Assembly: GCA_041742595.1 (NCBI GenBank)
Contig: JBGSIJ010000003.1
Coordinates: 107,409 to 171,408, forward strand
Source of the DNA: Fimbriimonadaceae bacterium
GTDB taxonomy: Bacteria > Armatimonadota > Fimbriimonadia > Fimbriimonadales > Fimbriimonadaceae
Direction: 5' to 3'
Length of the DNA stretch: 64,000 bases
Positions 7,497 through 40,027 of the stretch are shown here, one piece after another. The position numbers were made by a program, and so were the translations under genes. The stretch's first letter is position 1, and the number at the start of each line of letters is the position of its first letter. The notes under the pieces were generated by a model. The model worked only from the letters and a program-made list of their open reading frames with translations. It had not been told where the DNA came from and searched no databases.

Positions 7497-8398
7497 GCCT
7501 GCTCTAGGATCGCGTGCCGCCATCCCCGTACGCTGACTCGGCAGCCCAGCACCCGCTGGCAGAAGAGGAAGCGCTCGAGGATGAGCGCGCCGTAGTGAAG
7601 CGTCTTCTCACGACCCGGCTCCATGCCCACGATCGCTCCTCGTTCGGCGTCGGTCATGGGCATCATCCAGCCCGCCGCCTTGCTGACTTCCTCGTAATCC
7701 AGCCAGGCCCCGTGAACCTTCTCTGGTTGCCAGGTGGTCATGCCCTCTCGGATCGAGACAAGGTTGGTGCCGGTCGCGCCAAGGACTACCGAGACACCCG
7801 CCTGGCCGGGGCGGTAGCCCAGCCCGATCAGGTCGTCGATCTGGGCGGACGCCCGAAGCAGGTGAGGAATGTCCAGCGATTCGCCGAACTGTCCACGCAA
7901 TCCTAGCGTGCCCACCGGATAGCTGCGCCGGAACTTGGTCGCCCATCCAGCGCCTTCCCGCACGGCGGTCGCCATCTCCGTGCTCTGGCCGCCGGGATCG
8001 ATGATGGAAAGAATCTGGTGGTCGCGGAACAGCGGGTCGCTGGCAACCGCTTTGAACCCGAAGTCGGCCTCGTCCTCCCCCGAAAGGACCTTGACGGGAG
8101 TGCCCTGCGCGGCGGCCGCCTCCAGGAACACGCTCTGGTTGGTGGCGATTCGTACCGCCATGGTGGCGAACGCCTGCACGCTTTGGCAGCCCAGGTCCTT
8201 CGCATCTTGCCAGAACTCCTGGATGGCAAGGAGGGAACTCTCCCGAGCGGTTTGGCTGAGCAGGCCGGTCTCCTTGGTGCCCGCCCCAAGCGAGGTGACT
8301 GCGGTGCGCTCCAGCACCGGGGTCCAGTCCAGACCCGTTCGTTCTTCGACGGTGAGGAGGACGGAGTTGGACCCCACGTCGAGCACGGCCTTTCGCAT
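7493..8398 (-). CDS. ppx: Ppx/GppA-family phosphatase (exopolyphosphatase / guanosine pentaphosphate phosphohydrolase)
   Basis: The N-terminal AVLDVGSNSVLL actin-like fold and the DPGGQSTE motif are present. Confidence 0.75.
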   Translation of the reverse strand: MRKAVLDVGSNSVLLTVEERTGLDWTPVLERTAVTSLGAGTKETGLLSQTARESSLLAIQEFWQDAKDLGCQSVQAFATMAVRIATNQSVFLEAAAAQGTPVKVLSGEDEADFGFKAVASDPLFRDHQILSIIDPGGQSTEMATAVREGAGWATKFRRSYPVGTLGLRGQFGESLDIPHLLRASAQIDDLIGLGYRPGQAGVSVVLGATGTNLVSIREGMTTWQPEKVHGAWLDYEEVSKAAGWMMPMTDAERGAIVGMEPGREKTLHYGALILERFLFCQRVLGCRVSVRGWRHAILEQA

Positions 8399-8480
8399 TT
8401 CGGAAGGCTACCGTTCCAAGGGATGTTCCGGTTGGTCGCGCCGATCCACCCGAACCACCCGAACCAGTATCCTCCCAACC

Positions 8481-9926
8481 ATGGCAAAGCTCCTTGGCAT
8501 CGACGTCGGCACCTCTGGGTGCAAGGTGCTCCTCATCGACGAAACCGGGCGCATCCTGAAACAAGCCGGAGCCGAGTACCCGCTACTGGTGCCTCGCCCG
8601 CTTTGGTCGGAGCAGAATCCGGAGGACTGGTGGGCGGGAGTTTTGGCTTGCCTCAAGGAGATCAACGAGCCGAACCCCGATGCGATCGGCCTGACCGGCC
8701 AAATGCACGGCGCGGTATTCCTCGATGCCCAGGGCCAGGTGATTCGGCCAGCGATCCTGTGGAACGACCAGCGAACGGTGGCGGAGTGCGCCGAGATCGA
8801 CGCGACGGTCGGCGCCCAAGACGTTCGCGCCATCACCTGCAATCCACCCCTCACCGGTTTCCAGGCGCCCAAAGTGCTCTGGTTGCGGAACCACGAGCCC
8901 GAGAACTTTGCCAAGGTGAAACAGGTTCTGCTTCCCAAGGACTACATCCGTTACCGATTGAGCGGAGTGTTCGCCACCGAGGTCAGCGACGCGGCGGGCA
9001 CCGGTCTGCTCGACGTCCCGGCCCGGACGTGGTCCGAGACCATGCTGTCTAGGCTCAAGCTTGAGTCGCGCTGGTTCCCGCCGGTGTACGAATCCGACGA
9101 GGTGTCGGCTCGAACCGATGGGGCGGCTGGACTCGCGGCCGGGATTCCGATCGTGGGCGGAGGGGGGGACCAAGCCGCTGCCGCGGTGGGTACCGGAGCG
9201 GTCGCCCCCGGGGTCATTTCGGTGAGCCTTGGCACCAGCGGCGTTGTCTTCACCGCAATACCGGGCGCTTCGTTCGATCCGGGTGGAGCGGCCCACACCT
9301 TCTGCCATGCCAACCGTGGGTGGCACGCGATGGGCGTCATGCTCAGCTGCGGCGGGGCCTTGAGGTGGCTTCGAGACACGCTCTATCCGGGGGAGGACTA
9401 TGCCCGACTCAATGCAGAGGCCGCATCGGCTCCCGCTGGATCGAACGGTCTGACCTTTCTGCCCTATCTGACCGGTGAGCGCTGTCCTCACAACGATTCC
9501 TATGCGCGTGGAGGCTGGAACGGCCTGACTCTCGGCCATGGGCGCGGGCACCTGGCGCGGGCCGTCTTCGAAGGCGCGACGTTCGGCCTACTAGACGGAA
9601 TGAACCTTTTGCGAGGTTTGGGGGCGAGCGGCGATGAAGTGCGCGTTACCGGCGGCGGGGCCAAAAGCGCCCTATGGTTGCAGATGCTCGCAGATGCCTT
9701 CGAGGTGCCCTGCGTTACTCTGGAAACCGACGAGGGACCCGCGTTTGGCGCGGCCATCCTGGCCGGGGTTGGGCTCGGCGTTTGGGCCAGCGTCCAGGAA
9801 GCATGCGGCCAAGCGGTTCGCACGAAAAGCGTCGTCGAGCCATCCGGGCAAAACTACCGGCAAGCCTACATGCGCTACCAAACGCTGTATCCGGCGGTTA
9901 AGGACTGGAACCACGCCCTATCCTAA
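8481..9926 (+). CDS. xylB: Xylulokinase (FGGY carbohydrate kinase)
   Basis: The in-frame ATG gives MAKLLGIDVGTSGCKVLL…, followed by the FGGY N- and C-domains with GGGAKSALWLQMLAD. Confidence 0.85.
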   Translation: MAKLLGIDVGTSGCKVLLIDETGRILKQAGAEYPLLVPRPLWSEQNPEDWWAGVLACLKEINEPNPDAIGLTGQMHGAVFLDAQGQVIRPAILWNDQRTVAECAEIDATVGAQDVRAITCNPPLTGFQAPKVLWLRNHEPENFAKVKQVLLPKDYIRYRLSGVFATEVSDAAGTGLLDVPARTWSETMLSRLKLESRWFPPVYESDEVSARTDGAAGLAAGIPIVGGGGDQAAAAVGTGAVAPGVISVSLGTSGVVFTAIPGASFDPGGAAHTFCHANRGWHAMGVMLSCGGALRWLRDTLYPGEDYARLNAEAASAPAGSNGLTFLPYLTGERCPHNDSYARGGWNGLTLGHGRGHLARAVFEGATFGLLDGMNLLRGLGASGDEVRVTGGGAKSALWLQMLADAFEVPCVTLETDEGPAFGAAILAGVGLGVWASVQEACGQAVRTKSVVEPSGQNYRQAYMRYQTLYPAVKDWNHALS

Positions 9927-12645: not shown

Positions 12646-14610
12646 GTGAGGCGATTCATCACATCGTTAACCGGGAAGATCGTGGGTCAGGTAGTTATCC
12701 TGGCGCTGTTACTTCCCTCGCTCACCCTTACGCTCGCTGGTCGAGCGGAGGCTCAGCAACTTGCGATGCCAACATGGGCAGTCGTTGAGTTCGAGAACAT
12801 GAAGCCGGGTGGGGGGAACCTGGGCGCGATCGCCGCGGAGGCCGTTGCTTCGGAGCTGGCAAAGCTCGGCAAGTACGACGTCGTTCCGCAAGAGAACGTC
12901 AAGCGAAAGCTGGACGATCTTGGCCTTCAGAGCCCGGTAACGAGCGAGGTCAGCCTTCTCCGGTTGGCACAGGAGCTCCGCGCTTCGACCATCGTGACCG
13001 GCCAGGTAGTGAACTACCGTGTCACCAACGTCGGCGGCGGCAAGCAGGCCGACGTTTTGATGCGCATCGTCGTTCGCGACGTCGCATCCGGCCTTGCGGT
13101 GAACGGCTCCGCTCTCTCGGCCTCGTCGACGGTTCGAACCGGCGACGTTGCAGACAGCACCGTCATCCAGGAAGCATTCCAGACCGCCGCCAACCGCGCC
13201 GTCAACGACGTTCAGTCGAAGACGCTTCCGTCGGCTACGGTTCTGAACACGCTGACCACCACCGCCCTCATCAACCAGGGCGCTCGCTCCGGCTTCGAGG
13301 TCGGAATGAATCTCGTCGTCCTTCGTGGACGTGAGCAGGTGGCCACGGCCAAGGTCTACAACGTGGAGCCTGACTCTGCGAACATCCGAGTTGAGCGATC
13401 CTACAAGGGTCTTCAGCCCGGAGACAAGGTCCGCGCGATCTTCACGCCTCCCACCATCAGCCCCGACTTTGCCAAGGGCGGTGGCGTCAACATTCAGAAG
13501 CCTCGCAAGTCTGGCAACAACGCCGGCGCGATCTCCACGATCCTCGTGGTTGGCCTTGTGCTTCTCCTCGCAGGCGGCATCGGCGGCGGCGGTGGCGGCA
13601 GCAGTGCCGGTACCTCGGCGCGGGTTGCCCGTGCCGAAGCCTTCGTTGACAATGCCGGCCGACCGGCCGTTCGGATCAGCTGGGCTACCGACGGCTTCGC
13701 CAAGGGTAGCTACAACCGCGTTGCATGGCAAGTCTGGCGCAGCGAGTGGCTGGACAGCCCGGTCCTCGTGGTTCCTGGCAACTCCACTTCGGCTATCGAC
13801 AACTCGCTGGCCCGCAACGTTTCGTACAGCGACTTCGGCCGCGTGAACGGATCGACCTGCGACTTCAGCGATGCGAACCTGACGGATGCGGCAGCAGTGC
13901 CGGGCGTCACGGCGGGACGATCTCTTCGCTACCAGGTCGAGTTGGTCTACAAGATCAATGCTCTCGACCTTCCGGGCGCTGGTGGCACGAGTGGCACCGG
14001 CGGCACGGGTGGTACCGGCGGCACTAGCGGCACCGGTGGCACGGGTGGAACTGGCGGTACGGGTGGTACCGGCGGAACCGGTGGCACGGGCGGTACGGGT
14101 GGTACTGGCGGGACCGGTGGCACGGCGGGCGACGGCGGAGACTGCTTCTTCGTCTCCGGTCGAAAGACGACTGACGGCTTCGCGACTCCGGTCGTCCGCT
14201 CTCAGCTCATCTCGCCGGCGCAGAACGCTTCGGTGGCCAGCCCGACCAATGCCGGCGGCGGACAGGTTCTTAACCAGAAGGTTACGTTCACGTTCTCCTC
14301 GGTGGTCACGCTCGACACGCTCCTGGCCGAGTACATCGTTCAGGTGTCCTCCAGCTCGGACTTCGCCAAGTCGCGAACCCGAACGGTTGGCGCTAAGCTC
14401 GTGAGCTCTTCTCAGGGACAGCTTTCGATCACGGCGGACAACGACTTCTACACGGCGGCCAAGGCGGTCGTCTGGTGGCGAGTCGGCGCACGCGTCATGG
14501 ACGACAAGCCCGGCCCCTCGCCGGATAAGGCGTCTGGACTGCGCTACGTGTTCAGCTCTCCCAACCGCTTCACGAGGCCGGACGCTCCTCCGCCCCCTCC
14601 TGCTCCCTAG
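12646..14610 (+). CDS. Secreted mosaic envelope protein: signal peptide, CsgG/LpoB/TolB-N-like domain, beta-sandwich domain, central TM-like segment, Fn3-like domain, (Gly-Thr-Gly)n linker, Fn3-like domain, Pro-rich tail
   Basis: A GTG start lies 7 nt after AAGGAGGA. The signal peptide is …LTLAGRAEA|QQ. The CsgG-like pattern is VVEFENMKPGG…ELAKLGKYDVVPQENVKRKLDDLGL…IVTGQV. The hydrophobic segment is ISTILVVGLVLLLAGGIGGGGGGS. A GTGGT-type repeat is encoded by a 9-bp tandem DNA repeat. Confidence 0.7.
   Translation: MRRFITSLTGKIVGQVVILALLLPSLTLTLAGRAEAQQLAMPTWAVVEFENMKPGGGNLGAIAAEAVASELAKLGKYDVVPQENVKRKLDDLGLQSPVTSEVSLLRLAQELRASTIVTGQVVNYRVTNVGGGKQADVLMRIVVRDVASGLAVNGSALSASSTVRTGDVADSTVIQEAFQTAANRAVNDVQSKTLPSATVLNTLTTTALINQGARSGFEVGMNLVVLRGREQVATAKVYNVEPDSANIRVERSYKGLQPGDKVRAIFTPPTISPDFAKGGGVNIQKPRKSGNNAGAISTILVVGLVLLLAGGIGGGGGGSSAGTSARVARAEAFVDNAGRPAVRISWATDGFAKGSYNRVAWQVWRSEWLDSPVLVVPGNSTSAIDNSLARNVSYSDFGRVNGSTCDFSDANLTDAAAVPGVTAGRSLRYQVELVYKINALDLPGAGGTSGTGGTGGTGGTSGTGGTGGTGGTGGTGGTGGTGGTGGTGGTGGTAGDGGDCFFVSGRKTTDGFATPVVRSQLISPAQNASVASPTNAGGGQVLNQKVTFTFSSVVTLDTLLAEYIVQVSSSSDFAKSRTRTVGAKLVSSSQGQLSITADNDFYTAAKAVVWWRVGARVMDDKPGPSPDKASGLRYVFSSPNRFTRPDAPPPPPAP
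13981..14130 (+). repeat. In-frame 9-bp tandem repeat (GGYGGCACN-like, ~16 units) encoding (G-T-G/S)n
   Basis: Imperfect tandem units are directly visible: ggtggcacg / ggtggtacc / ggcggcact / agcggcacc …. Confidence 0.8.
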
Positions 14611-23311: not shown

Positions 23312-23336
23312 GGCCTTGCGAGATAAACTGAACTCG

Positions 23337-23423
23337 GAGGGGTGGCAGAGTGGTCGATTGCAACGGTCTTGAAAACCGTCAGGGCGCAAGTCCTCGGGGG
23401 TTCGAATCCCCCCTCCTCCGCCA
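23337..23423 (+). tRNA. tRNA-Ser (anticodon TGA), 87 nt, with a long variable arm and an encoded CCA
   Basis: The cloverleaf was folded by eye. The acceptor stem pairs GGAGGGG with CTCCTCC. The anticodon loop is CTTGAAA, giving UGA. The T-arm is GGGGG-TTCGAAT-CCCCC, the discriminator is G and CCA follows. Confidence 0.85.
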
Positions 23424-31541: not shown

Positions 31542-32459
31542 ATGACAGGAATCGCGTTCATAGGCTTTCTGCTTTTGTTGGTGGCCTTTGTGGTCCACGT
31601 GTCGCGTAGTCAGATGCCGGATCCCGCCCGTTCAAAGGGGCAGGCTTGGATTCTGGGTGTGATCGGCGTGCTGATGATCTTCGTCGGATCCATCGCGGGG
31701 GCGTTCACTCAGGTTCCTGCCGGTTACAGGGCGGTGCTCATGCGCTTCGGCGCGGTCCAGGGAATGCTCGGCGAGGGAATCCATTTCATCGTCCCCGGTG
31801 TAAACAGCGTGGAGTTGGTCGAAGTCCGCACCCAGAAGGAAGAGAGCACCGCGACGGCCGCCTCGCGCGACCTGCAGACCGTTTCCACCAGTCTCGCCCT
31901 AAACTTCCGCGTGGACCCGGCCAAGGTTGGCGAGCTCTACCAAAAGGTCGGCACCCAGTACAAGAGCCGAATCATCGACCCGGCGGTCCAGGAGTCGGTC
32001 AAGGTGGTCACCAGCCGCTACAGCGCGGAGGACCTGATCCGAAACCGCGCTCAGGTGAAAATGGAGGTCGAGGCCGAGATCACGAAGCGCCTCGGCGCCT
32101 ACAACCTGATCGTCGAGCCCAGCGGCCTGTCCATCACCAACTTCGACTTTTCGCCCGAGTTCAACAAGGCGATCGAAGCCAAGCAGGTCGCCCAGCAGCA
32201 ATCCGAGCAGCAGAAGTACGTACTGGCCCAGGCGCAACTGGAGCAGCAAACCGACATCGCCCGCGCCAAGGGTAAGGCGGAGGCCGCCAAACTCAACGCC
32301 GAAGCCCTGCGCGCCCAAGGAGGCTCGCTGGTCATCGCCCGCGAGTGGATCACCAAGTGGGACGGCAAACTCCCGCAGGTCGGCGGCGGCAACAACGGCT
32401 ACATGATCGACATCAAGTCGCTGATGGATTCCGCCAGCGAAGGCCGCCCTGGAAGGTAG
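31542..32459 (+). CDS. SPFH/band-7 (prohibitin/HflK/C-like) membrane protein
   Basis: The in-frame ATG gives MTGIAFIGFLLLLVAFVVH… (N-terminal TM), followed by an SPFH domain and a coiled-coil Ala/Gln/Glu tail. Confidence 0.8.
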   Translation: MTGIAFIGFLLLLVAFVVHVSRSQMPDPARSKGQAWILGVIGVLMIFVGSIAGAFTQVPAGYRAVLMRFGAVQGMLGEGIHFIVPGVNSVELVEVRTQKEESTATAASRDLQTVSTSLALNFRVDPAKVGELYQKVGTQYKSRIIDPAVQESVKVVTSRYSAEDLIRNRAQVKMEVEAEITKRLGAYNLIVEPSGLSITNFDFSPEFNKAIEAKQVAQQQSEQQKYVLAQAQLEQQTDIARAKGKAEAAKLNAEALRAQGGSLVIAREWITKWDGKLPQVGGGNNGYMIDIKSLMDSASEGRPGR

Positions 32460-32573
32460 TGATTGAGCCTTGAGGCAGGCGAGTTCTTCGGCCGCCATCG
32501 AAGGGTTGGGGGCATTCGTCGACCCCTAACTAGGCCTAGTCGCGAAGAGCTCGAAGTGGTTTAAGTCTCGAAT

Positions 32574-32636
32574 CCCAGTGCCTGCCCTGGGAATGGTGTC
32601 GCGACTCCAATCCCAACGGGTTTGCAGCCCCGGCCA
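32574..32636. repeat. Partial REP-like element (CCCAG…CCTGGG hairpin plus conserved tail)
   Basis: The sequence CCCAGTGCCTGCCCTGGG…GTGTCGCGACTCCAATCCCAACGGGTTTG resembles the tail of REP copy B. Confidence 0.45.
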
Positions 32637-32637
32637 C

Positions 32638-32734
32638 AACCCCTTTGGGGTTGGTGTTCTTGCGGACGAACCTCCCAGGGTAGGCACCGGCTGGTGCCAA
32701 CCCTGGGCTTCCGGGCCGAGAACCCCTTCGGGGT
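32638..32734. repeat. REP/BIME-like element, copy A (three hairpins)
   Basis: The three hairpins are AACCCCTTTGGGGTT, CCCAGGGTAGGCACCggctGGTGCCAACCCTGGG (with spacer CTTCCGGGCCGAG) and AACCCCTTCGGGGT. Copy A is near-identical in architecture to copy C. Confidence 0.7.
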
Positions 32735-32898
32735 AAATCCAAGGAGAAGATCACTGGATGTCAGCCAGAGCAAGTTCCATGGGCCGGCGCCGAAGCATTG
32801 AGGTCCTTGGCTGGACCCAAACTCGAGACCGAGCTGGCCCAAGGTCAAGTACTGGTGTTGATGCCCTGGATCCGCCTCTGACTCTGCCGCGTTCCGGC

Positions 32899-32993
32899 AA
32901 CCCCAAAGGGGTTCTGTCCCAAAAGCCCAGGGTTGGCACCCCGTGCCTACCCTGGGTGTGCCGTCGCGATTCTCAACCCCAACAGGGTTGTGG
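32899..32993. repeat. REP/BIME-like element, copy B (inverted orientation), immediately 3' of the RAYT gene
   Basis: The hairpins are AACCCCAAAGGGGTT, CCCAGGGTTGGCACcccGTGCCTACCCTGGG and AACCCCAACAGGGTTGTGG. Copy B is the reverse-complement arrangement of copies A and C. Confidence 0.7.
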
Positions 32994-32994
32994 C

Positions 32995-33441
32995 CTAATC
33001 CCACACGTAACGCTCATCCCAATTGAGGGAGTGCTCAAGGAGCAGGTCACGGAACTCGTCCTGGAAGGACCGAGTCTTGTGGTGCTCCTCCTGGGAAGCC
33101 ACGTATGCGCGGACGGCGGGTAGCTGAGCTTGGCCAACCGAGAAGGCCGCATACCCGCTCTGCCAGGAGAAGTCTGGGCGGTGCCCCTTCATCCATAGGC
33201 TTGATACACGTTTGAGTTCCTTAACCCAATCTGCGATGGCGGTTGTACGTCCCAGCCGGGCAAGAACGTGGACGTGATCCTCGACCCCTCCAACCAGCTC
33301 GGGCGGGCAGCCAAACTCGCGAGACACTCCTCCCATGTAAGCGTGCAAGTTCTGCCGAACCTCCTTTTCCTCTAGGTACACAATCCTGTTCTTCGTAGAG
33401 AAGACCAGGTGAACGTATGCGGCTGAGAAGGATTGGGGCAT
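32995..33441 (-). mobile_element. REP-associated tyrosine transposase (RAYT, IS200/IS605-like TnpA_REP), 148 aa
   Basis: The start is at internal M52 (MPQSFSAAYVHLVFSTKNR…). The HxH motif (HVHVL) and the catalytic Tyr region are present. The gene is flanked on both sides by inverted REP palindromes. Confidence 0.8.
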
Positions 33442-33465
33442 CGAAGCAATCCTACACTGGGCCGC

Positions 33466-33561
33466 AACCCCCCTTGGGGTTGGTGTTTGCCTACCAGCCA
33501 CCCAGGGTTGGCACGAAAACGTGCCAACCCTGGGCTTCCGGCTCCAGAACCCCTTCGGGGT
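33466..33561. repeat. REP/BIME-like element, copy C, 25 nt upstream of the RAYT start
   Basis: The hairpins are AACCCCCTTGGGGTT, CCCAGGGTTGGCACgaaaacGTGCCAACCCTGGG (a perfect 14-bp inverted repeat, with spacer CTTCCGGCTCCAG) and AACCCCTTCGGGGT. Confidence 0.75.
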
Positions 33562-33718
33562 AGGGCCAACGCGCGGGATCGAAGGCGTGGACAATGGCCA
33601 GTCTCAAGCGTCTCGCAGGATCCGGAAGTCGCTTAGCAGACTCACTGCGCGGCGTTACGCCGCCATCAACTGGCGAAGGTCTCGACGTCCTTGAGAGACC
33701 CAGATGCAAGCCACCACT

Positions 33719-36700
33719 CTACAGACCGAGCTTCTCGCGTTCCGCTTCTAGCTGCCGGAAGGCCTCGTCGAACGTCATTAGCAGCTTCTCGATCCCCAAG
33801 ATCGGGTTGCCGGTGTAGGGCCAGATGAACTGGCCCTGCGCCAGGTAGCACTCGCGGTTCTTCTTGGCCACGAGGCTGATGACTCGGGGTGGGACCGCTT
33901 CACGGTCGCTGAAGGTGATCGACAGCCGCCCCTGGCGGGCGTCCACCTTGCTCATCCCGAGATCGCGGGCGTGGATCCGCTGGCCCATAATCGCGAAGGC
34001 GTTGTGCACCTGCTCCGGCGGGTGGCCGTACCGATCCTCGATTTCGCCTTGCACCGCCGCCAGGCTCCCCTCGGTCCGGCAAGACATCATCTTCTGGTAG
34101 TAGTAGAGCCGCTGGGCTTGGTCCTTGATGTAGCCTTCGGGGAGCAGCGCCACTACGGGAACCTCGAACTGCGGAAGCGGCGTCAAGGACTCCAGCGGAT
34201 CCTTTACGTCGCCGGTGGACTGGCCGTCCACCGAATTCTTCAGCATCGCCACCGCCTCGTTGATGAGCTGGGTGTACAGCTCGTAGCCAACGTTGGCCAT
34301 CGCGCCATGCTGGCGTGCGCCAAGAAGCTCGCCGGCACCGCGAATCTGGAGGTCTCGGAAAGCCAAGGAGTAGCCGGAGCCAAGGGTCGAGAACTCCTGC
34401 AGCGCCTGCAAGCGAGCCATCCCTGATTCGGTCAGGTCCTTGCCGCTCGCATAGAGGAAGTAGGCGTAGGCTTGACGATCCGAGCGGCCGACCCGTCCAC
34501 GCAGTTGGTAGAGCTGCGAGAGGCCCAGACGGTCCGCGTTCTCCACGATCAGGGTGTTGGCGTTGGAGATGTCGATGCCGTTCTCGATGATCGTCGTGGA
34601 GAGCAAAATGTCGATCTCGCCCTTGATGAAGCCAATCATGATCGGCTCGAGCTCCTTTTCGTGCATCTGGCCGTGCCCGACGCCGATCCGGGCGGTGGGG
34701 ATTAGCTTGCGCAGCGACTCCGCGACGTGCTCGATCGACTCGACTCGGTTGTAGACGTAGAAGACCTGCCCGCCACGGGCAAGCTCGCGCAGAATCGCCT
34801 CGCGAATGACTTCTTTGCTGTAGGGCCGCAGGAAGGTACGGATCGGCAACCGGCCTGGAGGCGGGTCGTTGATCAGGGACATCTGTCGGATGTCCATCAG
34901 CGCCATGCTCAGGGTCCGGGGGATCGGGGTCGCGCTCAGGGTGAGCACGTCGACCTCGGTGCGGAGCTTCTTCAGAAGCTCCTTCTGCTTTACGCCGAAC
35001 TTCTGCTCCTCGTCAATGATCACCATCCCGAGGTCTTTGAACTCGATGCTAGAACCCAGAAGCGCGTGGGTGCCAAGGACGATATCGATCTCGCCGTTGC
35101 CCAGCCTCTTCTCCACGTCGCGCTTGTCGGGACCGGTGACGTAGCGGTTGATCAGACCAAGCTGAACGCCAAAACCGCCCAGGCGTTCCGCGAAGTTCCG
35201 GTAGTGCTGCTCGCTGAGGATCGTGGTGGGGCACAGAACGGCCACTTGCCGTTTGTCCTGCACCGCCTTGAAAGCGGCCCGGATCGCGACCTCGGTCTTT
35301 CCGAATCCAACGTCTCCGCAAACCAGTCGGTCCATGGGCCACTCCAGCTCCATGTCCTTCTTTGCTTCCTGGATTGCGGTGGCCTGGCTGGGGGTCTCCA
35401 CCCAGGGGAAGGTGGCCTCCATCTCGGCCTGCCAGGGGGTGTCCGGGCTATAGCGGGGACGGACGACCTTTTTGCGCGCCGCGTACAGCTTGACCAGGTC
35501 GCGGGCGAACTCCTTGGCTTCCTCCTTCGCTTTTCCCAGCGTGCGTTGCCACTCACCTCCCGTGAGCTTGTTTAGCTTCGGGTGCTCATCGCCCGGGTTC
35601 AGGTATTTCTGGATCCGATCCAGCTGGTCGGCTGGCACGAACAGCTTGTCGGGAGCCTGGTATTCGATGTAGAGGAACTCTTTCTCGACGCCCTGCTCGA
35701 TCCGCTTGACAAGTCCGCGGAAAACGCCTATCCCAAAGTGGATGTGGACCACGTAGTCGCCCGGCTTCAGGTCCAGCACGGTGGCGATCGGCGCGCCTTC
35801 CATAAAGCGCCGCTGAGGAAGTTTGAGCCGGGCAACGCCAAACAGCTCTCCATCCGTAACCACGGCCAACTTCTCGCCTTGGAGGATGAACCCTCCGCCG
35901 AGATTGCCGTGGGCCAGGAACTGCCCTCCCGATTCGCCCTCGGTGGGCATGCTGTCGAAAGGAAAGATCTCCGCCGCTTCCAGCACGCTCTTGGCGCGGT
36001 TGGGCTGATCCGTGGCAAAGACGCAGGAGACGCCCTCCTTGGTCCAGTTGCGCAGGGTGAGGGTAAGCGCCTCGCTTCGTCCGCGATAGGGATCGAGGCT
36101 TACCGCCTGGAGGTCGAGTTGGACGGGAAGCCTCAGCCAATCCGGAAGCGCGTTCATGGCGCTGAGGCTGACGATGCGGGAATGATCGGCGAAGTGCTCC
36201 GGCGGAAGCATGAAGTCGTTTGCCGTTGAGTGGAGGATCTCGCCGCGCTCCCGCCGAGCGGCGAGGGCTTGGCCGAGCTCCTCCTCGGAGCGCGCCGCGA
36301 TCGACTCCAATTCAAGCGGCTCGTCTAGGACGAGCAATCCGTCCTCGCCGAGCAAGTCGATTGCGCAACCCGAGTCTGGGTGGAGCATGGGTCGATAGAG
36401 GTCGAGGCGGTCGAAGTAGACCTTCGCCCCGAGAGCGTCGGCGTCTCCCGCAACCAGTTCCTCGAGGCGGGCCGAGGCTTCCGGGGCAAGCATCGCGGCC
36501 TCGCGCTCCATGCTTGAGGTCACCAGTTCGGCCAGCCCTTCGTGTCCTTCGACGTAGAGGGTTTCGCGAGAGGGTGCCATCGCCAGGCTCTCGATCTGTC
36601 CAACCGAGCGCTGGGAGTTCGGGTCGAACATCCTCAGGCTCTCGATCTCGTCGCCAAAGAACTCGATCCTGACGGGCAGGTCCCGCCCCGAGGCGTAGAT

Positions 36701-37249
36701 GTCCAAGATCCCACCTCGGCGGCTGAACTGCCCGGGCAGCCGAACCGGCTCCTGGTGCTCGTAACCGAGCCGGCCGAGCCTCCTCTGGAGCCCTTCGACG
36801 TCCACCACATCCCCCTTACGGAGCAAGAGAAAGGCGTCGTTTAGAACATCCGTCGGCAGAGTCCGCTCGAGGGCGGCTTGAGGCGTTGCCAGGATAATCG
36901 CGGGCTCTGGACTGGCAAGGACCCGAAGGGCGCCAAGGCGATCGGAAAGGGCGATGTGCTCGGGCGCCGCGTCCTCGAACAAAGCGGAAGAGCCGCTGGG
37001 AAGGATGTGGATGTCGCCGTGGCGCACGCCGCAGATCTCGAGCTTGGCCTGCCACTGGAGGGCTCGATCGTAGTTCGCCGCCACGATGAGGGTCTTTCTG
37101 GGACTCTGGAGGTGCCGAGCGGCGAGCAACACCGGGCGCGCCTCGGGACATACCGTCTGCCATTCGGCGGACTGTTGCTCCAAGGAGGCGAACGCTTCTT
37201 TCAGTGATGGGAGCGCGCCGATTCTGCGCGTCCAAGCCAAGAGGCTCAT
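33719..37249 (-). CDS. mfd: Transcription-repair coupling factor
   Basis: The protein is 1176 aa with UvrB-homology, RNAP-interaction (CarD-like), DEAD/DEAH helicase (GDVGFGKTEV; DEEQKFG) and TRCF C-domains. Confidence 0.9.
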   Translation of the reverse strand: MSLLAWTRRIGALPSLKEAFASLEQQSAEWQTVCPEARPVLLAARHLQSPRKTLIVAANYDRALQWQAKLEICGVRHGDIHILPSGSSALFEDAAPEHIALSDRLGALRVLASPEPAIILATPQAALERTLPTDVLNDAFLLLRKGDVVDVEGLQRRLGRLGYEHQEPVRLPGQFSRRGGILDIYASGRDLPVRIEFFGDEIESLRMFDPNSQRSVGQIESLAMAPSRETLYVEGHEGLAELVTSSMEREAAMLAPEASARLEELVAGDADALGAKVYFDRLDLYRPMLHPDSGCAIDLLGEDGLLVLDEPLELESIAARSEEELGQALAARRERGEILHSTANDFMLPPEHFADHSRIVSLSAMNALPDWLRLPVQLDLQAVSLDPYRGRSEALTLTLRNWTKEGVSCVFATDQPNRAKSVLEAAEIFPFDSMPTEGESGGQFLAHGNLGGGFILQGEKLAVVTDGELFGVARLKLPQRRFMEGAPIATVLDLKPGDYVVHIHFGIGVFRGLVKRIEQGVEKEFLYIEYQAPDKLFVPADQLDRIQKYLNPGDEHPKLNKLTGGEWQRTLGKAKEEAKEFARDLVKLYAARKKVVRPRYSPDTPWQAEMEATFPWVETPSQATAIQEAKKDMELEWPMDRLVCGDVGFGKTEVAIRAAFKAVQDKRQVAVLCPTTILSEQHYRNFAERLGGFGVQLGLINRYVTGPDKRDVEKRLGNGEIDIVLGTHALLGSSIEFKDLGMVIIDEEQKFGVKQKELLKKLRTEVDVLTLSATPIPRTLSMALMDIRQMSLINDPPPGRLPIRTFLRPYSKEVIREAILRELARGGQVFYVYNRVESIEHVAESLRKLIPTARIGVGHGQMHEKELEPIMIGFIKGEIDILLSTTIIENGIDISNANTLIVENADRLGLSQLYQLRGRVGRSDRQAYAYFLYASGKDLTESGMARLQALQEFSTLGSGYSLAFRDLQIRGAGELLGARQHGAMANVGYELYTQLINEAVAMLKNSVDGQSTGDVKDPLESLTPLPQFEVPVVALLPEGYIKDQAQRLYYYQKMMSCRTEGSLAAVQGEIEDRYGHPPEQVHNAFAIMGQRIHARDLGMSKVDARQGRLSITFSDREAVPPRVISLVAKKNRECYLAQGQFIWPYTGNPILGIEKLLMTFDEAFRQLEAEREKLGL

Positions 37250-37658: not shown

Positions 37659-38516
37659 ATGAAGAAAGCATTTACGCTCATCGAGCTCCTCGTCGTGATC
37701 GCGATCATCGCGATTCTTGCGGCGATTCTTTTCCCCGTCTTCGCCCAGGCTAAGGCTGCCGCCAAGAAGACCGCTTCGCTCAGCAACGTCAAGCAGAACA
37801 TGCTTGGCCTTCTGATGTACAACGGCGACAACGACGATCTGTTCGCTCCGGTTGTCTCCTGGAGCGGCCCGGCGCCCGCCTTCTTCGGCGGCACCCCCTA
37901 CCAGCCGTGGTCTTGGCTTGTGCTCCCCTACATGAAGAGCACGGACATCCTGCAGGACCCCCAGGCTCCTTCCATGGAAGCTTGGCCGGCCGTTTGGAAC
38001 GTCAACACCACCAAGGCGTTGGCTCCCCAGTACGGTCTCAACTACCAGGGCCTGAGCCCGGTCACTGCGGGAACGGACACTGCGTTCCAGATCACCCCGG
38101 TCAGCAGCACCTCCGTCGAGAGCCCGTCCGAGACGGTCGCCCTCGCGGCTAAGTTCTCCACTTCGGAGGACGCCCTCGGCGCTTCTGGCACCTACTGGGC
38201 CGGCGCTGGCTCCTGGACCACGGTCGTGACGGTTGAAGGCCCCGAGTGCTTCACCATCGTTCCCTACTGCTTCGTCAACTGGGGCGTTGGTTCCTGGTAC
38301 GACACCGACTACCTGAACCAGAACAAGGCTGCCGGCGCCAAGACGGGCGGCGTTTCGCTGCGCAACGCGGACCGCTCGATCGTCTCCTGGGTTGACGGCC
38401 ATGCTTCCGCGAACTCCGCCGGACAGCTTGCGAAGGGAACGAACTTCACGTTCGACACCGCCGAAGCTTCCGTCGTCTTCACGGACGAAACCCTGTACCT
38501 CTGGGACTCTAAGTAA
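37659..38516 (+). CDS. Prepilin-type N-terminal cleavage/methylation-domain protein of the DUF1559 (H-X9-DG) family, copy 1
   Basis: The N-terminus MKKAFTLIELLVVIAIIAILAAILFPVF is a class III signal with a type IV pilin-like helix. The C-terminus is RNADRSIVSWVDGH. Confidence 0.8.
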   Translation: MKKAFTLIELLVVIAIIAILAAILFPVFAQAKAAAKKTASLSNVKQNMLGLLMYNGDNDDLFAPVVSWSGPAPAFFGGTPYQPWSWLVLPYMKSTDILQDPQAPSMEAWPAVWNVNTTKALAPQYGLNYQGLSPVTAGTDTAFQITPVSSTSVESPSETVALAAKFSTSEDALGASGTYWAGAGSWTTVVTVEGPECFTIVPYCFVNWGVGSWYDTDYLNQNKAAGAKTGGVSLRNADRSIVSWVDGHASANSAGQLAKGTNFTFDTAEASVVFTDETLYLWDSK

Positions 38517-38737
38517 TGAAGTCCCTGCTCGGCGCCATCGCTACGATCGCGATTGCCGCAGCCCTTATGGGTTGCGGCTCCGAGCCGGTGGCCAAGGAAG
38601 ATCCGGAAGCGGCCGCGAAGCCTAAGGTTTCGAAGGGTGGCAACGCGGATCTCGCCCAGCAGGCTCCGGAAATGACTCCTCCGCCCAACGCACCGACCGC
38701 CGACCAGGTAGTTGGTTCAAAGGGTGGCGGAAACTAG
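38516..38737 (+). CDS. Small lipoprotein (73 aa) translationally coupled to DUF1559 copy 1
   Basis: An ATGA stop/start overlap joins it to the upstream gene. The signal plus lipobox is …AALMGC|GS. The conserved C-terminal motif is APEMTPPPNAPTADQVVGSKGGGN. Confidence 0.65.
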   Translation: MKSLLGAIATIAIAAALMGCGSEPVAKEDPEAAAKPKVSKGGNADLAQQAPEMTPPPNAPTADQVVGSKGGGN

Positions 38738-38759
38738 CCGGAACCACTGAACATCTCGC

Positions 38760-38793
38760 GATCCCTTCCGTCGCTTCATAGCCGGAAGGGATC
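38760..38793 (+). other. Intergenic stem-loop between the two DUF1559-lipoprotein modules (possible terminator/attenuator, no U-tract)
   Basis: An 11-bp perfect inverted repeat GATCCCTTCCG/CGGAAGGGATC surrounds a 12-nt loop. Confidence 0.35.
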
Positions 38794-38883
38794 CGGGAAC
38801 CAACTTTCCCAGGATCGGGCACCTTACTGCAGGTTAGATTGCGGTGAGCGGCTTAATTTTTCCTGAACAAATCACGAAATCCC

Positions 38884-38910
38884 TTGCAAGGGAACAGAGG
38901 CCGCTATACA
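38884..38910 (+). promoter_or_regulatory. Weak candidate promoter TTGCAA-N15-TATACA upstream of DUF1559 copy 2
   Basis: Hexamers are visible but the spacer is short (15 nt), so this is speculative. Confidence 0.25.
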
Positions 38911-38951
38911 ATGGTCACTGTCTTTGGGGCGTTTGCCCCGGGTGATTTTTC

Positions 38952-39800
38952 ATGAAGAAAGCTTTTACGCTCATTGAACTCCTAGTAGTCATCGCCATCA
39001 TCGCGATCCTCGCCGCCATCCTCTTCCCGGTTTTCGCCCAGGCGAAGGCTGCTGCGAAGAAGACCTCCTCGCTCAGCAACGTCAAGCAGGAGATGCTTGG
39101 CCTCCTCATGTACGCAGGCGACAACGACGACGTGTTCGCGCCGGTCGTTTCCTGGAGCGACCCTGCTCCGGCATACCTCGGCGGCGGCCCTTACCAGCCG
39201 TGGTCCTGGCTCATCCTCCCCTACATGAAGAACACGGACATCATGCAGGACCCGCAGGCTCCGGCCATGCAGGCTTGGCCGGCCGTTTGGAACGTCAACA
39301 CCACCAAGGCGTTGGCCCCCCAGTACGGTCTCAACTACGTCGGTCTTAGCCCGGTCACCGGTTCGCCGTTCGTCATCACGCCGAACAGCTCCACCTCGAT
39401 CGCCGCTCCGGCCGAGACGGTTGCCATCGCAGCCAAGTTCTCCACCTCCGAGGACAGCCTCGGCGCGACCGGCACCTACTGGGCTGGCGCTGGCTCCTGG
39501 ACCACGACCCAGACGGTCGAAGGCCCCGAGTGCTGGACCATTCCTGAGTGGTGCTTCGTCAACTGGGGCGTCGGTTCCTGGTACGACACCAGCTACCTCC
39601 TTGGCAACAAGGCTGCTGGCGCCAAGACCGGCGGCGTCTCGCTCCGCAACGCCGATCGCTCGATCGTTGCTTGGGTCGATGGCCACGCCACCGCCAACTC
39701 CGCTGGCCAGCTCGCCAAGGGTACGAACTTCACGTTCACGACCAACGAGCCGGACGTGGTGTTCACGGACGAGACCGTATACCTCTGGGACAAGAAGTAG
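38952..39800 (+). CDS. Prepilin-type N-terminal cleavage/methylation-domain protein of the DUF1559 family, copy 2 (paralog of 37659-38516)
   Basis: The first ~45 residues are almost identical to copy 1. Similarity is high throughout and the C-terminus is RNADRSIVAWVDGH. Confidence 0.8.
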   Translation: MKKAFTLIELLVVIAIIAILAAILFPVFAQAKAAAKKTSSLSNVKQEMLGLLMYAGDNDDVFAPVVSWSDPAPAYLGGGPYQPWSWLILPYMKNTDIMQDPQAPAMQAWPAVWNVNTTKALAPQYGLNYVGLSPVTGSPFVITPNSSTSIAAPAETVAIAAKFSTSEDSLGATGTYWAGAGSWTTTQTVEGPECWTIPEWCFVNWGVGSWYDTSYLLGNKAAGAKTGGVSLRNADRSIVAWVDGHATANSAGQLAKGTNFTFTTNEPDVVFTDETVYLWDKK

Positions 39801-40027
39801 TGAAAAGAAGCCTCCTCTCTGGATTCCTGATGGTCGTCGGAGCTTTGGCTCTGGTGGGATGTTCAACCGAACCGGCAGCGCCTGAGACTCCGGTCGGCCA
39901 GGCTCCCGCACAAACGGCTAAGGGCGGAAACGAGGGATTGGCTAAGGAAGCCCCCGAGATGACCCCTCCTCCCGGTGCACCCACCGCGGACGAGATCGTC
40001 GGATCGAAGGCAAAGGGCGGCAACTAG
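39800..40027 (+). CDS. Small lipoprotein (75 aa) translationally coupled to DUF1559 copy 2 (paralog of 38516-38737)
   Basis: A GTG start overlaps the TAG stop (TAGTG). The lipobox is LVGC|ST and the conserved C-terminal motif is APEMTPPPGAPTADEIVGSKAKGGN. Confidence 0.6.
   Translation: MKRSLLSGFLMVVGALALVGCSTEPAAPETPVGQAPAQTAKGGNEGLAKEAPEMTPPPGAPTADEIVGSKAKGGN

Follow-up and report, generated by a model that had tools for sequence, protein, structure and literature searches.

Here, we describe a system found in a 64,000-nucleotide stretch of contig JBGSIJ010000003.1 from a Fimbriimonadaceae bacterium of the phylum Armatimonadota (positions 107,409 to 171,408; hereafter the window, whose own numbering is used throughout), in which a gene for a 148-aa Y1 HUH endonuclease (32995-33441, minus strand) is bracketed by inverted copies of a ~105-nt module that folds into three hairpins. 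The locus is probably a REPtron-like system built on TnpAY1 subclass 1.2, which is an IS200-related branch of the Y1 HUH endonucleases that is not made up of insertion sequences (ISs). The three-hairpin family behaves like a REPtron/REPIN (REPIN, a doublet of repetitive extragenic palindromes, or REPs, that forms a hairpin), and the window shows its home cluster only, consisting of the gene, three full module copies and one decayed copy. The original prediction had read the locus as the canonical arrangement of a REP-associated tyrosine transposase (RAYT), i.e., a TnpA_REP gene between copies of a composite palindromic REP/BIME element. A REPtron-like layout was indeed observed, with a gene-less inverted pair adjoining the gene and with the copies on the two sides of the gene in opposite orientation, as predicted; neither the protein nor the repeat, however, is of the canonical type.

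The open reading frame (ORF) of the Y1 gene is intact, running from ATG to TAG. Its product matched the Pfam profile Y1_Tnp with 75.9 bits against a cutoff of 23, in agreement with the original prediction, and contains the expected HUH motif at D55-H56-V57-H58 (33268-33279) and the catalytic tyrosine at Y113 (33103-33105), both encoded on the minus strand; W93-Q94, Q117 and H120-H121 are further motif residues. In an alignment of 15 homologues of 60-66% identity (A1), residues D55, H56, H58, W93, Q94, Y113, Q117, H120 and H121 were invariant, as were F126, Q127, E129, R131, L134, H137, E143, W147 and D148 in the C-terminal tail. The tyrosine motif of the window protein reads Y113-V-A-S-Q117-E-E-H-H (Y-x3-Q-x2-HH), and the W[TS] and Y[IV]ENQ of IS200/IS605 subclass 1.1 are replaced here by WQ and YVASQ..HH. 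The combination of DH[IV]H, WQ and Y-x3-Q-x2-HH is the one tabulated for TnpAY1 subclass 1.2 by Quentin, Siguier, Chandler & Fichant (2018, PMC6006769, Table 1), according to whom the proteins of this subclass are 148 aa long in the median and end in a conserved domain of ~30 aa that is specific to them. Judged from its motifs, length and tail, the window protein matches subclass 1.2 as published. The same work records this subclass as low-copy and not IS-like, with the entry "REP: no" (PMC6006769). The first two properties agree with what we found, within evidence limited to the contexts of identical proteins and to clustering at 90% identity (see below); the third differs, as a conserved module of three hairpins lies on both sides of the window gene and of its homologues.

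A family profile run against the sequences of the PDB matched IS608 TnpA (1.3e-7) and ISDra2 TnpA, and did not match Escherichia coli TnpAREP among those sequences even at E = 10. An AlphaFold (AF2) model of the 148-aa protein, with a predicted local distance difference test score (pLDDT) of 83.7, best matched ISDra2/IS608 TnpA (E 4e-7), with TnpAREP (4er8) as a weaker match (E 2e-4, TMq 0.61). Some relatives, among them P0122, P0125-P0127 and P0129, are ~290 aa long with two matched stretches; by their sequences, these are predicted to be two tandem-fused Y1 domains. IS608-type Y1 enzymes act as dimers, and a covalent "single-chain dimer" of the window protein's family would be unusual.

The palindromes around the gene are parts of one module of ~105 nt. 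Its order is hairpin 1 (CAACCCCnnnGGGGTTG), ~20 variable nt, a central hairpin, an invariant CT, ~10 nt and a hairpin 3 of 5 bp. The central hairpin has the general form CCCAGGGT(A/T)G, 4-5 variable bp, a loop and CAACCCTGGG, and is followed by the invariant CT; in the window it is found as CCCAGGGT(A/T)GGCAC-loop-GTGCCAACCCTGGG, then CT, with AACCCCTTCGGGGT as hairpin 3. The presence of repeated palindromic copies, as claimed in the original prediction, is well supported by counts over the window. The half-site CCCAGGGTTGGCAC, with up to two mismatches allowed, occurred 8 times versus 0.82 expected (0/100 shuffles reached 8), with seven of the eight sites lying within 32578-33534, and AACCCCTTCGGGGT occurred five times versus 0.69 expected, four of these in the gene/module region. 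A covariance model, R1, built from 20 copies from the window and from other phyla (alignment A2), detected three full copies and one decayed copy when run over the 64-kb window.

Two of the full copies bracket the gene in inverted orientation, with hairpin 1 gene-proximal on both sides. Directly 3' of the gene lies copy B (32885-33001, minus strand; R1 92.1 bits; fold z -3.4), which includes the inverted-repeat pairs I1, I2 and I6 and is composed, in plus-strand coordinates, of hairpin 3 at 32900-32913, the central hairpin at 32926-32956 and hairpin 1 at 32974-32990, the last ending 4 nt from the stop codon of the gene. Directly 5' of the gene, before the end of mfd, lies copy C (33454-33576, plus strand; R1 84.3 bits; fold z -4.7), with hairpin 1 at 33465-33482, the central hairpin at 33501-33534, CT at 33535-33536 and hairpin 3 at 33548-33561. 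The third full copy, A (32626-32749, plus strand; R1 92.7 bits), folds as single-stranded DNA (ssDNA) with -33.8 kcal/mol (z -4.5), and its parts are hairpin 1 at 32637-32653, the central hairpin at 32674-32707 (GTAG opposite CAAC, giving an A.A mismatch), CT at 32708-32709 and hairpin 3 at 32721-32734. The decayed copy (32533-32635, minus strand; R1 19.9 bits, E 0.0015) retains a remnant of the central hairpin, CCCAGTGCCTGCCCTGGG (32574-32591), and one of hairpin 1, CAATCCCAACGGGTTTG (32608-32624); its half-site at 32578-32591 (minus strand) differs from CCCAGGGTTGGCAC by two mismatches and from the degenerate form CCCAGGGTWGGCAC by one. Together with copy A, the decayed copy forms a head-to-head, gene-less doublet (32533-32749) that adjoins the gene and is the sole doublet of the window. 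Copies A and C are 84% identical to each other and at most 73% identical to any outside copy; in general, module identity was 72.5% within a locus versus 61.6% between loci.

The anatomy of the protein and of the repeat makes it hardly credible that the locus is a canonical class-2 RAYT (TnpAREP) with classical sequences of the REP or bacterial interspersed mosaic element (BIME) type. All class 2 proteins, i.e., the TnpAREP/RAYT enzymes, share Y-x-x-x-N-P (PMC6006769), in place of which the window protein has Y-x3-Q-x2-HH, the subclass 1.2 signature. The canonical identity of the enzyme was rejected because Y-x3-N-P is absent and Q117, H120 and H121 are invariant in the 15 homologues. Inverted palindromes do flank the gene, GTAG and CT motifs are present, and many homologues carry the JGI (Joint Genome Institute) label "REP element-mobilizing transposase RayT", which we take to be a generic COG name. 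Nevertheless, the family profile did not match TnpAREP among the PDB sequences at E = 10, the repeated unit is a ~105-nt module of three hairpins with GTAG inside the central stem instead of a 20-40-nt palindrome with GTAG at its foot, and no dispersed copies are present in the window.

Several lines of evidence indicate that the module is maintained as a structure. As ssDNA, each window copy folds into three hairpins with z scores of -3.4 to -5.3 relative to shuffled sequences. RNAalifold, applied to a MAFFT alignment of 20 copies, predicted 25 pairs, 16 of them with compensatory double changes. Among 115 copies aligned by fitting to R1 (A4), 96.8% of the cells were paired versus 38-44% when the partners were slid by 1-3 columns; double changes were found at 17/25 pairs, in 301 cells, and 0/500 shuffles reached any of the observed measures. 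The independent MAFFT alignment of 20 copies led to the same conclusion. Across the outer 8 bp of the central stem the sequence hardly changes, while the inner stem and hairpins 1 and 3 vary with pairing kept, and hairpins 1 and 3 appear to be selected for structure rather than sequence. The putative recognition core, CCCAGGGTAG...CAACCCTGGGCT, is nearly invariant across at least six phyla. On the 5' arm of the central hairpin, GTAG usually stands opposite CAAC, which produces a conserved A.A mismatch that marks the strand; among the 29 copies that had not been chosen by a search pattern, the mismatch was present in 24 and the 3' CT in all. This mismatch was not part of the original prediction. 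In copy C the central hairpin is a perfect palindrome (inverted repeat I10, 15/15 nt), with a T-A pair replacing the A.A mismatch, and the same replacement was observed at L009:10493-10525 (loci are designated by L numbers and homologous proteins by P numbers). Both T-A copies are gene-adjacent. Should recognition depend on the mismatch, the two copies may be ends without activity, which could contribute to the immobility of the gene.

Covariation of this kind would suit RNA as well as ssDNA, and the module might instead act chiefly as transcribed RNA, for example by terminating transcription, stabilising mRNA or regulating the Y1 gene, with its spread a by-product of this function. The modules on the two sides of the gene fall within its 5' and 3' untranslated regions and would be complementary to one another there, hairpin 1 of copy A scores as terminator-like, and REPs are known to influence mRNA stability (PMC3733652). 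We consider this explanation quite improbable. At gathering thresholds, Rfam matched only a tRNA elsewhere in the window, and a search of 32450-33650 with E values up to 10 gave chance miRNA/lncRNA matches and no family for the module. The promoter/terminator scan returned no promoter-like site and one terminator-like site versus 1.8 expected. Moreover, the modules occur in both orientations, in inverted doublets and in alternating arrays, whatever the direction of the neighbouring genes, and they go together with an HUH nuclease gene and give rise to deletion derivatives (see below). A role in RNA and a role as a mobile repeat need not exclude each other.

The association of gene and module is not confined to the window. 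The layout hairpin 3'-central'-hairpin 1'-GENE-hairpin 1-central-hairpin 3 was observed at L009 (a 3.4-Mb JGI contig), L010 (a Verrucomicrobiota-type contig), L011 (a Pyrinomonadaceae metagenome-assembled genome, MAG), L013 and L015, and at the metagenome loci L034, L059, L070 and L112; inverted modules on both sides with hairpin 1 proximal were also found at L012 (Luteolibacter) and L017. These homologues are ~60% identical to the window protein and come from Verrucomicrobiota, Acidobacteriota and unassigned metagenome contigs. The stems at the homologue loci covary, with the inner stem found as GCCGC/GCGGC and the outer as CCAACG/CGTTGG. Overall, hosts of the gene were found in Armatimonadota, Verrucomicrobiota, Planctomycetota and Acidobacteriota, and orphan modules also in Chloroflexota and Lentisphaerota. 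At L010:7759-10664, the Y1 gene is surrounded by a cluster of at least seven modules, in which two doublets are separated by a DDE_3-family transposase gene (7960-9372) that looks like the insertion of an unrelated IS.

Most module copies found elsewhere, ~90%, have no gene, and such gene-less copies are spread over at least six phyla. A metagenome scan for CCCAGGGTAG-N8-24-CAACCCTGGGCT yielded at least 120 loci, and nhmmer and tblastn were then applied to the listed loci. Among the matches listed, 10 loci carried the gene or a gene remnant and 50 contained at least one head-to-head doublet, for a total of 55 doublets with a median gap of 22 nt and with their hairpin-1 ends facing; the remaining listed loci were alternating arrays (L056, L079) or singles. 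Within the same matches, the gene lay on the hairpin-1 side of 15/152 modules that had at least 800 bp available there. Two doublets enclose fragments of the gene, encoding aa 125-148 at L119:3591-3891 and aa 75-143 at L049:12935-13367, and because these doublets keep gene fragments, we conclude that doublets arise by internal deletion of the gene-bearing unit. Three separate intergenic sites within 10-15 kb were found at both L030 and L132, and at L011 a doublet occupies the spacer between COX2 and COX1, 8 kb from the gene. A search for the exact window palindrome in 185,579 species, each represented by one genome, found six loci, in Victivallales, Armatimonadota, Verrucomicrobiota (three, two from one MAG) and Limnocylindria (Chloroflexota). 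No Y1 gene was detected within the stretch around any of the six, and those inspected were intergenic or at the 3' end of a gene.

Several individual gene-less loci deserve description. At L056:1619-3436 and L079:2947-4266, on contigs of 0.39 Mb and 2.3 Mb, 3-4 doublets follow one another ~440-640 nt apart in strictly alternating orientation, resembling a BIME cluster. On a viral-classed contig of 34.8 kb (IMGVR_UViG_3300035696_002904), represented by L147 and L150, at least four full modules are present, those of one stretch all pointing the same way: three ~4 kb apart at L150 (71-76 bits) and one at L147, another part of that contig. At L004:2432-3688, in an Armatimonadota MAG, a 418-aa ORF with the C-terminus ...GVPTLG* runs through the 5' arm of an orphan central hairpin and stops in its 3' arm, such that the module overlaps the 3' end of the gene. 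In Opitutus terrae, REPs are known to have inserted into the ends of coding sequences (PMC3733652).

Doublets that look like deletion derivatives could also be expected of an autonomous IS200/IS605 insertion sequence, in which the gene and its two flanking modules would move as a unit and the gene-less doublets would be miniature inverted-repeat transposable elements (MITEs). We regard this as unlikely, although it accounts for several of the observations. The gene-bearing unit sits in unrelated contexts in different genomes, the derivatives at L119 and L049 resemble the genesis of MITEs, modules occur on some IMG/VR contigs, the nearest solved relatives of the enzyme are IS608 and ISDra2 TnpA, and the protein passes the NCBIfam equivalog model transpos_IS200 (NF033573). 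This last model, however, was passed by 1 bit only (56.1 versus a cutoff of 55 bits). Furthermore, the ends of the unit are inverted copies of one module, whereas in IS200/IS605 the left-end and right-end hairpins differ from each other, lie on one strand and are not inverted repeats; tnpB is also absent. The behaviour of the gene does not look like that of an IS either. The protein search returned 4270 relatives, with 166 representatives at E values up to 1e-30 after clustering at 50%, and the closest relatives of the window protein are just 60-66% identical to it; it is alone in its 90% cluster, the window contains one copy of its gene, and a second, near-identical copy was not seen. Identical proteins always occurred in a single genomic context, with P0082 on 8 contigs with the same neighbours and P0050 and P0117 on 2 contigs each. 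The literature likewise gives low copy number and no duplicates for this branch (PMC6006769, PMC5581495). A search among the proteins of viral contigs gave no Y1 homologue. The loci that could be compared showed no polymorphism of insertion or of copy number, L001 and L002 being the same as the window and L013 the same as L014 over the upstream module array, and an orthologous unoccupied site could not be aligned, the Mfd relatives at L143 and L144 (72-74% identity) having other neighbours.

The reading of the locus as a REPtron-like system on a subclass 1.2 enzyme has several points weighing against it. Scans with R1, the half-site and AACCCCTTCGGGGT found no further module copy in the 64-kb window, and the dispersed copies are those of the family in other genomes. 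None of the 185,579 species representatives has more than two occurrences of the exact GGCAC-type palindrome, a figure that places the copies well below classical REPs unless the inner stems diversify. Part of the central hairpin is prescribed by the very pattern used for the metagenome scan. Each orphan locus covers a short segment of a MAG or of a metagenome contig, and the link between gene and orphan modules is one between collections of loci and not per genome. The equation of the window protein's family with IS200 Group 3 (see below) comes from the published description and not from sequences. Finally, the cleavage site, the choice of strand and the role of hairpins 1 and 3 in subclass 1.2 are drawn from analogy with related enzymes. 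As for the first of these points, extra sites among the matches listed amounted to 1.45 per 100 kb in loci of at least 8 kb, and at this family-wide density ~0.9 sites are predicted in the remaining 63 kb; the absence of further copies from the window is therefore uninformative either way. We estimate that there are tens of module sites per genome.

If the locus works as a REPtron-like system, a mechanism can be proposed from what is known of related enzymes. In IS608, the metal is bound by the two HUH histidines and by a glutamine four residues after the tyrosine. By its sequence, the window enzyme carries a catalytic set of the IS608 type, with H56 and H58 as the predicted metal ligands, Y113 as the nucleophile and Q117 four residues on. 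Y1 HUH enzymes bind imperfect ssDNA hairpins, in which stem irregularities serve strand recognition; ISDra2 TnpA contacts a mismatched base in the stem, and TnpAREP works on just one of the strands of the folded REP, depends on GTAG and on an irregularity in the stem, and cuts at CT (PMC8266576). By analogy with IS608/ISDra2 TnpA and E. coli TnpAREP, the protein would bind the folded central hairpin on ssDNA, for example on the lagging-strand template, and would read the strand via the conserved A.A mismatch in GTAG/CAAC. Cleavage might then take place at or near the invariant CT, at the 3' foot, with formation of a 5'-phosphotyrosine link via Y113. Rejoining of the strands would allow gene-less doublets to be copied or moved in trans, while the gene would stay single-copy. 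The probable role of hairpins 1 and 3 is to position the complex or make it more stable, or else to mark the limits of the unit.

Compared with known systems, the locus has features of layout in common with the class 2 systems, namely E. coli TnpAREP/REPtron and the Pseudomonas RAYT-REPIN (RAYT Groups 2 and 3), and features of its enzyme in common with IS608/ISDra2 (subclass 1.1). Like the former, it has a single HUH Y1 gene between inverted palindromes, REPIN-like gene-less doublets and BIME-like alternating arrays between genes, and a combination of GTAG, a stem irregularity and a nearby CT. In contrast, class 2 systems have Y-x3-N-P where Y-x3-Q is found here, use one hairpin, in REPs of 20-40 nt with GT[AG]G at the 5' foot, where a ~105-nt unit of three hairpins with GTAG inside the stem is found here, and have a REP family of their own for each tnpAREP, whereas CCCAGGGTAG...CAACCCTGGGCT is near-invariant across phyla; the copy number also appears lower here. 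The doublets and their median gap, together with the intergenic sites at L011, L030 and L132, correspond to the REPIN as described by Bertels & Rainey (2011). With IS608/ISDra2, which provide the closest solved structures, the window protein shares the HUH and Y-x3-Q arrangement and, presumably, the recognition of imperfect ssDNA hairpins; these elements differ in having asymmetric ends on one strand, in being multicopy and in often carrying tnpB, none of which was seen here. The IS200 Group 3 of Bertels, Gallie & Rainey (2017, PMC5581495) is RAYT-like, clusters with IS200, and has no duplicates and no members on plasmids, and its flanking 16-mers recur ~21 times per replicon. Genes confined to a single context, and module sites estimated in the tens per genome, are consistent with that description, and the window protein's family appears to be this group; the repeated element itself, however, is undescribed there (PMC5581495). 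The module was also undescribed in the full-text literature searched for its core sequences, a scope that subscription journals fall outside and in which 10-mer primer coincidences were the only matches, and the core sequence was absent from the supplements of PMC3733652 and PMC6006769.

In the window, the Y1 gene and its modules are placed between a Band_7/SPFH gene (plus strand, ending at 32459) and mfd (33719-37249, minus strand), whose product is 68-71% identical to Fimbriimonas sequences. Just beyond mfd, at 37659-39804, there is a tandem duplication of ~1.29 kb with segments 80-84% identical, probably two paralogous genes. Apart from this, a 9-nt tandem repeat, (GGT GGC ACN)n, of ~22 units was observed at 13945-14147, which would give a Gly-Gly-Thr repeat if coding, and a tRNA gene at 23336-23420 was the sole Rfam match in the window (57.1 bits).

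To our knowledge, work on REP/RAYT systems has dealt almost exclusively with Proteobacteria and exclusively with class 2 enzymes. What looks new here is a covariation-supported module tied to a branch previously reported without repeats, which, with its gene-less doublets, arrays and deletion intermediates, is found in Armatimonadota, Verrucomicrobiota, Acidobacteriota and other phyla. We propose tentatively, and with somewhat less than even confidence, that this module is a previously unrecognised cognate substrate of subclass 1.2, forming a third REPIN/RAYT-like partnership outside class 2. Such a partnership may represent an independent or an ancestral domestication of an IS200-type enzyme, and it can serve to test if the domestication of HUH transposases was a single event or a repeated one. 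The annotation labels "IS200/IS605 family transposase" and "RayT" are both imprecise for these genes. R1 provides a search model for mapping such elements in poorly studied phyla, and the hairpin, with its A.A mismatch, GTAG and CT, is a concrete substrate for the first biochemistry of subclass 1.2. If the proposal is true, these systems would be the missing intermediate between IS200 and RAYTs, as speculated for IS200 Group 3 (PMC5581495).

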